Of a DNA stretch of 64,000 bases, positions 57,644-57,896 are shown one piece after another; position 1 is the first letter of the stretch, and every line of letters begins with the position of its first letter. The DNA comes from Escherichia coli. GTDB lineage: Bacteria; Pseudomonadota; Gammaproteobacteria; Enterobacterales; Enterobacteriaceae. Below the pieces are notes generated by a model. The model did not search any database. It had not been told where the DNA came from and saw only the letters and a list, made by a program, of their open reading frames with translations. The stretch lies in NCBI RefSeq assembly GCF_024502345.1, contig NZ_JALDNN010000001.1; one strand, given 5' to 3'. The position numbers were made by a program, and so were the translations under genes.

Positions 57644-57795
57644 GTTCGTGTCTCCTGAAAAAAATCGTTCTGAATAAGTGTAAACGCGCGATTGTACCAT
57701 TACCAATAGCGCTTTTACTATGTTGTGACCTCGGTTCCGGGAAACAAACCTGGCCAGACATTGTTACACAACACTCCGGGTAATGCATTCCAATA

Positions 57796-57811
57796 CTGTA
57801 TATTCATTCAG
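57796..57811. promoter_or_regulatory. LexA (SOS) box shared by divergent ssb and uvrA promoters
   Basis: CTGTATATTCATTCAG, close to CTGT-N8-ACAG consensus, about 85 bp upstream of uvrA. Confidence 0.75.
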
Positions 57812-57896
57812 GTCAATTTGTGTCATAATTAACCGTTTGTGATCGCCGGTAGCACCATGCCACCGGGCAAAAAAGCGTTTAATCCGGGAAAGGTGA

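Follow-up and report, generated by a model that had tools for sequence, protein, structure and literature searches.

The window, i.e., the whole 64,000-nucleotide (64-kb) stretch of Escherichia coli DNA that was analyzed, carries the genes ssb and uvrA in divergent orientation on either side of a short regulatory spacer:

57107..57643, minus strand: ssb coding sequence, 178 aa (MASRGVNKV...DDDIPF), from the list of open reading frames
57897..60719, plus strand: uvrA coding sequence, 940 aa, with its ATG at 57897, from the list of open reading frames
57644..57896, no strand: ssb-uvrA divergent regulatory spacer, 253 bp

The start of ssb was taken as the ATG at 57643, and the longer TTG-initiated open reading frame was treated as a mechanical extension. 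The two start codons, at 57643 and 57897, confirm the 253-bp spacer between minus-strand ssb and plus-strand uvrA that an earlier note on this DNA had described. With window positions (p) converted as K-12 position = 4331768 - p, the spacer is 100% identical to positions 4273872..4274124 of K-12 MG1655, between uvrA (b4058) and ssb (b4059). The locus is already known: it is the K-12 uvrA-ssb regulatory region itself, which is well described. Relative to K-12, ssb differs from b4059 by 1 nt and 1 aa, and uvrA differs from b4058 by 1 aa and 95 of 2823 nt (3.4%), with synonymous-type changes. Of 5426 complete E. coli genomes, 5425 have the spacer. The chromosomal ssb-uvrA spacer is matched in 5426 places, four of which are in records labeled as plasmids, and a single genome contains it twice.

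Across positions 56250..61000 of the window, the sequence diverges from K-12 in a mosaic fashion. The segment that includes yjcB, ssb, and the spacer (56250..58000) differs by 0–1 nt and uvrA (∼58000..60750) differs by 3.4%, a contrast suggesting that a recombination boundary falls either at the 5′ end of uvrA or just within it. About 2 kb from the spacer, a 768-bp IS1 (54879..55646) interrupts pdeC (yjcC, c-di-GMP phosphodiesterase); K-12 lacks this IS1. An InsA open reading frame is located at 55316..55591 and the open reading frame of the truncated N-terminus of pdeC at 55620..56306, both on the minus strand. The insertion is associated with a 9-bp target duplication (K-12 4276113..4276121), and the IS1/pdeC junction is spanned in a single piece, at 98.7% identity, by one complete genome (O121 strain 201805972). 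On the plus strand, a GC-rich hairpin followed by a T-run (57014..57038) is located 69 nt past the stop codon of ssb and just after a yjcB-like open reading frame whose end is at 57008. The hairpin is likely the terminator of yjcB and possibly also serves ssb from the opposite direction. Scanning 56900..58100 against Rfam yielded no known RNA element and only sub-threshold chance matches, all outside the spacer, those at the hairpin being Phe_leader-like.

SOS boxes of Gammaproteobacteria have an invariant CTG-N10-CAG, an AT-rich center, and the consensus TACTG(TA)5CAGTA. The spacer has one such box:

57794..57813, no strand: LexA operator (SOS box), 20-mer TACTGTATATTCATTCAGGT, corresponding to K-12 4273955..4273974
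57796..57811, no strand: 16-nt core of the LexA box, CTGTATATTCATTCAG, as read from the sequence

The 20-mer is an imperfect palindrome in which CTG and CAG are kept, 10 nt apart. It was scored with a log-odds matrix, symmetric and 20 positions long, that was derived from 18 published LexA boxes (PMC3009722 Table 4), among which that of uvrA/ssb is absent. At 16.95 bits, it is the top of ∼64,000 positions in the window. Leave-one-out scores of the 18 proven operators range from 4.4 (polB) to 29 bits, a range that includes the score of the uvrA/ssb box, and by the same matrix, the box outscores the operators of ftsK, uvrD, dinB, dinG, and polB. According to exact tail probabilities, sites that reach 16.95 bits are expected 0.044 times per 64 kb and, given spacer composition, 0.00045 times per spacer. 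Only 1 of 100 windows simulated with a first-order Markov model reached this score (simulated maxima of 10.4 ± 2.2). The site, its significance, and its uniqueness within the spacer are direct observations.

Two runner-up sites in the window, TATTGTTTTTCACGACAGTA at 43270..43289 (11.41 bits) and GGCTGTTTTTTTATCCATTC at 34140..34159 (10.66 bits), have scores that fall in the chance range of the simulated maxima and were rejected as LexA sites. The bare pattern CTGT-N8-ACAG, with at most one mismatch, was rejected as a detector, having matched 19 times in the window versus 16.95 expected. Because this loose pattern is not discriminating, the 20-position matrix was used instead.

The earlier note had placed the core at 57796..57811 as the only LexA box of the spacer and had proposed matrix scoring and comparison with the characterized uvrA operator as checks. 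Its coordinates are exact to the base, and no second LexA box was detected in the spacer by the matrix, the sole other positive score being 1.81 bits; ssb and uvrA therefore flank a single operator. The score of 16.95 bits is well above the sub-threshold result that the note had named as counting against the site. Base for base, the box is identical to that of K-12, for which heterology indices of 6.98 (Fernandez de Henestrosa 2000, as cited in PMC9505508) and 6.2 (values of Courcelle 2001, as given in Table 1 of PMC11228462) have been published. Our own heterology index of 9.2 was calculated from the 18-site set; the different reference set accounts for the discrepancy with the published 6.98, and our index had no role as a threshold. 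With TCAG instead of ACAG as its right half-site and a heterology index of about 7, the uvrA/ssb box is a medium-strength operator.

Inside the spacer, no promoter was detected by a generic scan for the sigma-70 consensus. Because the promoters in the spacer are extended -10 types with weak -35 elements, a relaxed scan combined with conservation was used, and the promoter hexamers given for both strands rest on these two lines of evidence:

57821..57829, plus strand: extended -10 of the uvrA promoter, TGTCATAAT, from the relaxed scan and conservation
57801..57806, plus strand: TATTCA, a weak hexamer resembling a -35 of the uvrA promoter, located within the LexA box and with 17-bp spacing to CATAAT
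57797..57826, minus strand: candidate distal ssb promoter, P1, with -35 ATGACA (57826..57821), an 18-bp spacer, and -10 TATACA (57802..57797)
57760..57768, minus strand: candidate middle ssb promoter, putative extended -10 TGTAACAAT, from the relaxed scan, moderately conserved
57691..57699, minus strand: candidate for the proximal ssb promoter, LexA-independent, with extended -10 TGGTACAAT, from the relaxed scan

The promoter with TGTCATAAT is the sole plus-strand candidate that the relaxed scan found in the spacer, and transcription of uvrA is expected to start near 57836. The LexA box ends 7 bp before TGTCATAAT and includes the -35-like hexamer. This location agrees with the published overlap of the LexA box with uvrA's -35 region, as stated in PMC9505508. 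A LexA motif has also been reported upstream of a UV-induced uvrA transcript (PMC3009722), and in RNA-seq data, uvrA is induced 3.9-fold by AZT with a 4.4-fold LexA dependence (PMC11228462). The supplements of the ROSE (PMC10301672) and Cappable-seq (PMC4782308) papers have no entries for K-12 42739xx-42741xx.

On the opposite strand, ssb has been described as having three promoters, of which the most distal alone is LexA-repressible (Brandsma 1985, as summarized in PMC9505508). The three candidates on the ssb strand match this picture, with exact hexamers that are putative. The -10 and spacer of P1 fall inside the LexA box, and we infer that P1 is the published LexA-repressible distal promoter. 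Overlap of the box with a core promoter is clear on the uvrA strand, and on the ssb strand involves only the candidate ATGACA-18-TATACA. The proximal candidate, TGGTACAAT, precedes the ssb ATG by 47 nt and is separated from the box by ∼95 bp.

Conservation was surveyed by scanning genome contigs with a degenerate DNA pattern for the N-terminus of UvrA, an approach that is unbiased regarding upstream DNA. Of 120 loci recovered, 79 have ssb in divergent orientation 214–467 bp upstream of uvrA. All 79 are from Enterobacterales, save a few oddly labeled metagenome-assembled genomes (MAGs), and among the genera represented are Escherichia, Citrobacter, Salmonella, Klebsiella, Enterobacter, Pantoea, Erwinia, Pectobacterium, Brenneria, Rahnella, Budvicia, Proteus, and Tatumella. 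A LexA box of at least 11.7 bits occurs exactly once in each of the 79 spacers (median of 16.4, maximum of 22.0 bits), while no second-best site exceeds 5.4 bits and control DNA of equal length stays at or below 5.2 bits. The boxes comprise 33 distinct sequences, and CTG-N10-CAG is present in all of them. The arrangement, which had been called the expected one, is thus retained in all sampled Enterobacterales with the divergent pair.

The position of the box relative to the uvrA promoter is also conserved. The pattern TGnnAnnnT, mostly as TG(T/C)CATAAT, follows the box after 7 nt in 58 and after 9 nt in 18 of the 79 loci (76 of 79 together). In a MAFFT alignment of 80 distinct spacers, the most conserved noncoding 20-mers correspond to 57792..57811 (1.62 bits per column) and 57810..57829 (1.53 bits per column), relative to a spacer mean of 0.85. 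This conservation and the fixed geometry between the box and the uvrA -10 were, like the site itself, observed directly. Near ssb, 75 of 79 species have TGnTAnnnT, in most cases 43–45 nt from the ssb ATG, and a conserved block at the proximal ssb promoter (57677..57696) averages 1.17 bits. In the -10 of P1, TATACA is replaced by TATCCA in the many species that have a CTGGATA box; given this change, control of an ssb promoter by LexA may not extend to all species.

Two of the oddly labeled MAGs stand out in the survey. One labeled as Hyphomicrobiales (L017) has an enterobacterial-type region upstream of uvrA and the same box as Acerihabitans arboris (L008). In the other, labeled as Proteobacteria (L055), the spacer and box are of the Enterobacter type. 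Both bins are probably contaminated or mislabeled.

Among E. coli genomes, even the most divergent spacer that was recovered (91.7% identity) has an unchanged box, as do four further variants that were sampled. In 736 of 5419 complete genomes (∼14%), there is one mismatch within 57786..57835. All three such genomes that were sampled have a C-to-T change at 57814, directly 3′ of the 20-mer box, which changes TTGACC to TTAACC on the ssb strand. A fourth variant strain has a C-to-T change at 57835.

Across genera, the right half-site of the box varies. The TTCAG box of E. coli, Escherichia albertii, and Kluyvera scores 16.4 bits with a uniform-background matrix, and Citrobacter, like E. coli, has a weakened TCAG half-site and scores of 15–16 bits. 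The box TACTGTATATTCAAACAGGT has the consensus ACAG half-site, scores 21.8 bits with the same uniform-background matrix, and is present in Enterobacter, Lelliottia, Phytobacter, Pluralibacter, Salmonella, Klebsiella oxytoca, and Trabulsiella (loci L035, L038, L055, L056, L064, L078, L089, L090, L094, L095, and L119). The LexA operator is therefore predicted, from sequence, to be weaker in Escherichia than in genera with the TACTGTATATTCAAACAGGT type. It is conceivable, though we consider it a long shot, that operator strength and its consequences on the ssb side are tuned by lineage; the half-site differences, together with the change at 57814, may then alter how strongly the SOS response acts on ssb and uvrA in each lineage and help explain conflicting reports on whether ssb is inducible.

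We conclude, with high confidence, that 57794..57813 is a binding site for a LexA dimer and thereby brings uvrA, and less strongly ssb, into the SOS regulon. Repression by LexA, the existence of three ssb promoters, and the expression results are known from the literature, as is physical binding of LexA to the box (work cited in PMC9505508). In an undamaged cell, LexA on the box would cover the -35 and spacer of the uvrA promoter, spanning from about -43 to -24, and hinder binding of RNA polymerase. The same dimer would cover the -10 and spacer of the back-to-back distal ssb promoter on the opposite strand. Because the box is of medium strength (TCAG half-site, heterology index of about 7), repression is predicted to be leaky, with a substantial basal level of uvrA and only an ∼4-fold induction once RecA-stimulated self-cleavage of LexA empties the site. 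The downstream ssb promoters, of which the conserved one is TGGTACAAT, are 45–120 bp from the box and would be beyond the reach of LexA, so the essential SSB would be made constitutively. The distal ssb transcript would only add to this constitutive supply during strong SOS induction.

With the box located over the -35 of uvrA and only the distal ssb promoter being repressible, sharing of the operator is asymmetric. The operator is therefore common to both genes in architecture but asymmetric in effect, with uvrA controlled ∼4-fold and ssb having a high LexA-independent basal level. The claim of the earlier note that the operator is shared thus holds for the architecture and for uvrA, whose control is clear; for ssb, the effect is partial and conditional.

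An alternative is that the site is a genuine LexA operator that in practice regulates only uvrA, such that ssb is physiologically LexA-independent and sharing is merely a matter of gene arrangement. In the same RNA-seq data in which uvrA is induced, ssb shows a 1.5-fold induction by AZT and a 1.0-fold LexA dependence (PMC11228462), and ddPCR on growing cells found equal levels of ssb transcript in wild type and lexA3. Earlier studies, in the account given in PMC9505508, point largely in the same direction, with no induction of ssb in three microarray studies or several immunoassays and a slow, moderate rise in two other immunoassays. The distance of the conserved proximal ssb promoter from the box is consistent with this alternative, as is the strong box at uvrA in Vibrio, which ties the box to uvrA where ssb is not adjacent. 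Conversely, in RT-qPCR experiments, ssb increased 7- to 18-fold after gamma or UV irradiation, an increase that was abolished in lexA3, and ssb is overexpressed in lexA(Def). In Salmonella enterica, in which the LexA box is described as common to uvrA/ssb, nalidixic acid increased uvrA 11.2-fold and ssb 9.6-fold (PMC8072944). A LexA-repressible ssb promoter was moreover reported in Brandsma 1983 and 1985 (both as cited in PMC9505508), and the plausible promoter ATGACA/TATACA is located on the ssb strand beneath the box. We regard control of uvrA alone as unlikely but as a serious contender. The weakest alternative, that the box is a chance AT-rich near-palindrome in intergenic DNA without a regulatory role, could draw on the mismatched right half-site and on the chance-level frequency of the bare pattern, but it is at odds with the full-matrix expectation per spacer and the published expression data on uvrA/ssb, and is effectively refuted by the conservation data, in which each of the 79 species keeps one box at a set distance to the uvrA -10 while the flanking spacer diverges.

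An operator shared asymmetrically by uvrA and ssb remains the preferred reading, and its value is mainly one of correct regulatory annotation: uvrA and, conditionally, ssb belong to the SOS regulon of this strain. The survey adds a modest and unsurprising point, namely that a module of LexA box, 7–9 bp, and extended -10 is kept upstream of uvrA in 79 of 79 loci, with a spacing of 7 or 9 nt in 76 of them. The conserved ssb promoter, being independent of the distal one, fits the leaky and asymmetric control that has long been known.

The closest known system is the uvrA-ssb region of E. coli K-12, which has the same spacer, box, gene order, and orientation (Brandsma 1983 Nature 305:243; Brandsma 1985 NAR 13:5095; both as cited in PMC9505508). 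The spacer has no differences from that of K-12, and the strain is distinguished by the 95 of 2823 nt in uvrA and by the IS1 in pdeC, 2 kb away. Salmonella is like E. coli in having the divergent pair and a single box, located ∼80 nt upstream of the uvrA ATG and followed by an extended -10. The half-site differs: S. enterica subsp. diarizonae (L090), as well as the K. oxytoca and Enterobacter loci, has ACAG (TACTGTATATTCAAACAGGT, 21.8 bits), whereas E. coli has TCAG (16.4 bits).

Outside of Enterobacterales, Vibrio (loci L009, L012, L016, L061-L063, and L076) likewise has a CTG-N10-CAG box 63–76 nt upstream of uvrA. Unlike in E. coli, the box is stronger (21–25.6 bits) and there is no ssb in the 211–1500 bp upstream that were available per locus (the full 1.5 kb in three of six). 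The uvrA operator is thus not shared in Vibrio. In the sampled loci of Alteromonadales and Shewanella (L007, L028, L029, L033, L034, L037, L053, L059, L068, L072, and others), there is no E. coli-type box within 400 nt of uvrA, the best scores being below 5 bits. The presence in Vibrio of a uvrA box without ssb suggests that the box belongs primarily to uvrA and that its sharing with ssb would follow from the gene arrangement of Enterobacterales.

Single operators between divergent genes are also found elsewhere in the SOS response. At tisB/istR, one LexA box is located between divergently transcribed SOS-responsive units. The nlhH/higB-2 locus of Salmonella likewise has one LexA operator between divergent SOS-responsive units, albeit of different genes (PMC8072944). 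Relative to nlhH/higB-2 and tisB/istR, the ssb-uvrA region differs in that ssb, one of the two partners, is a housekeeping gene, essential to the cell, and is also served by LexA-independent promoters.
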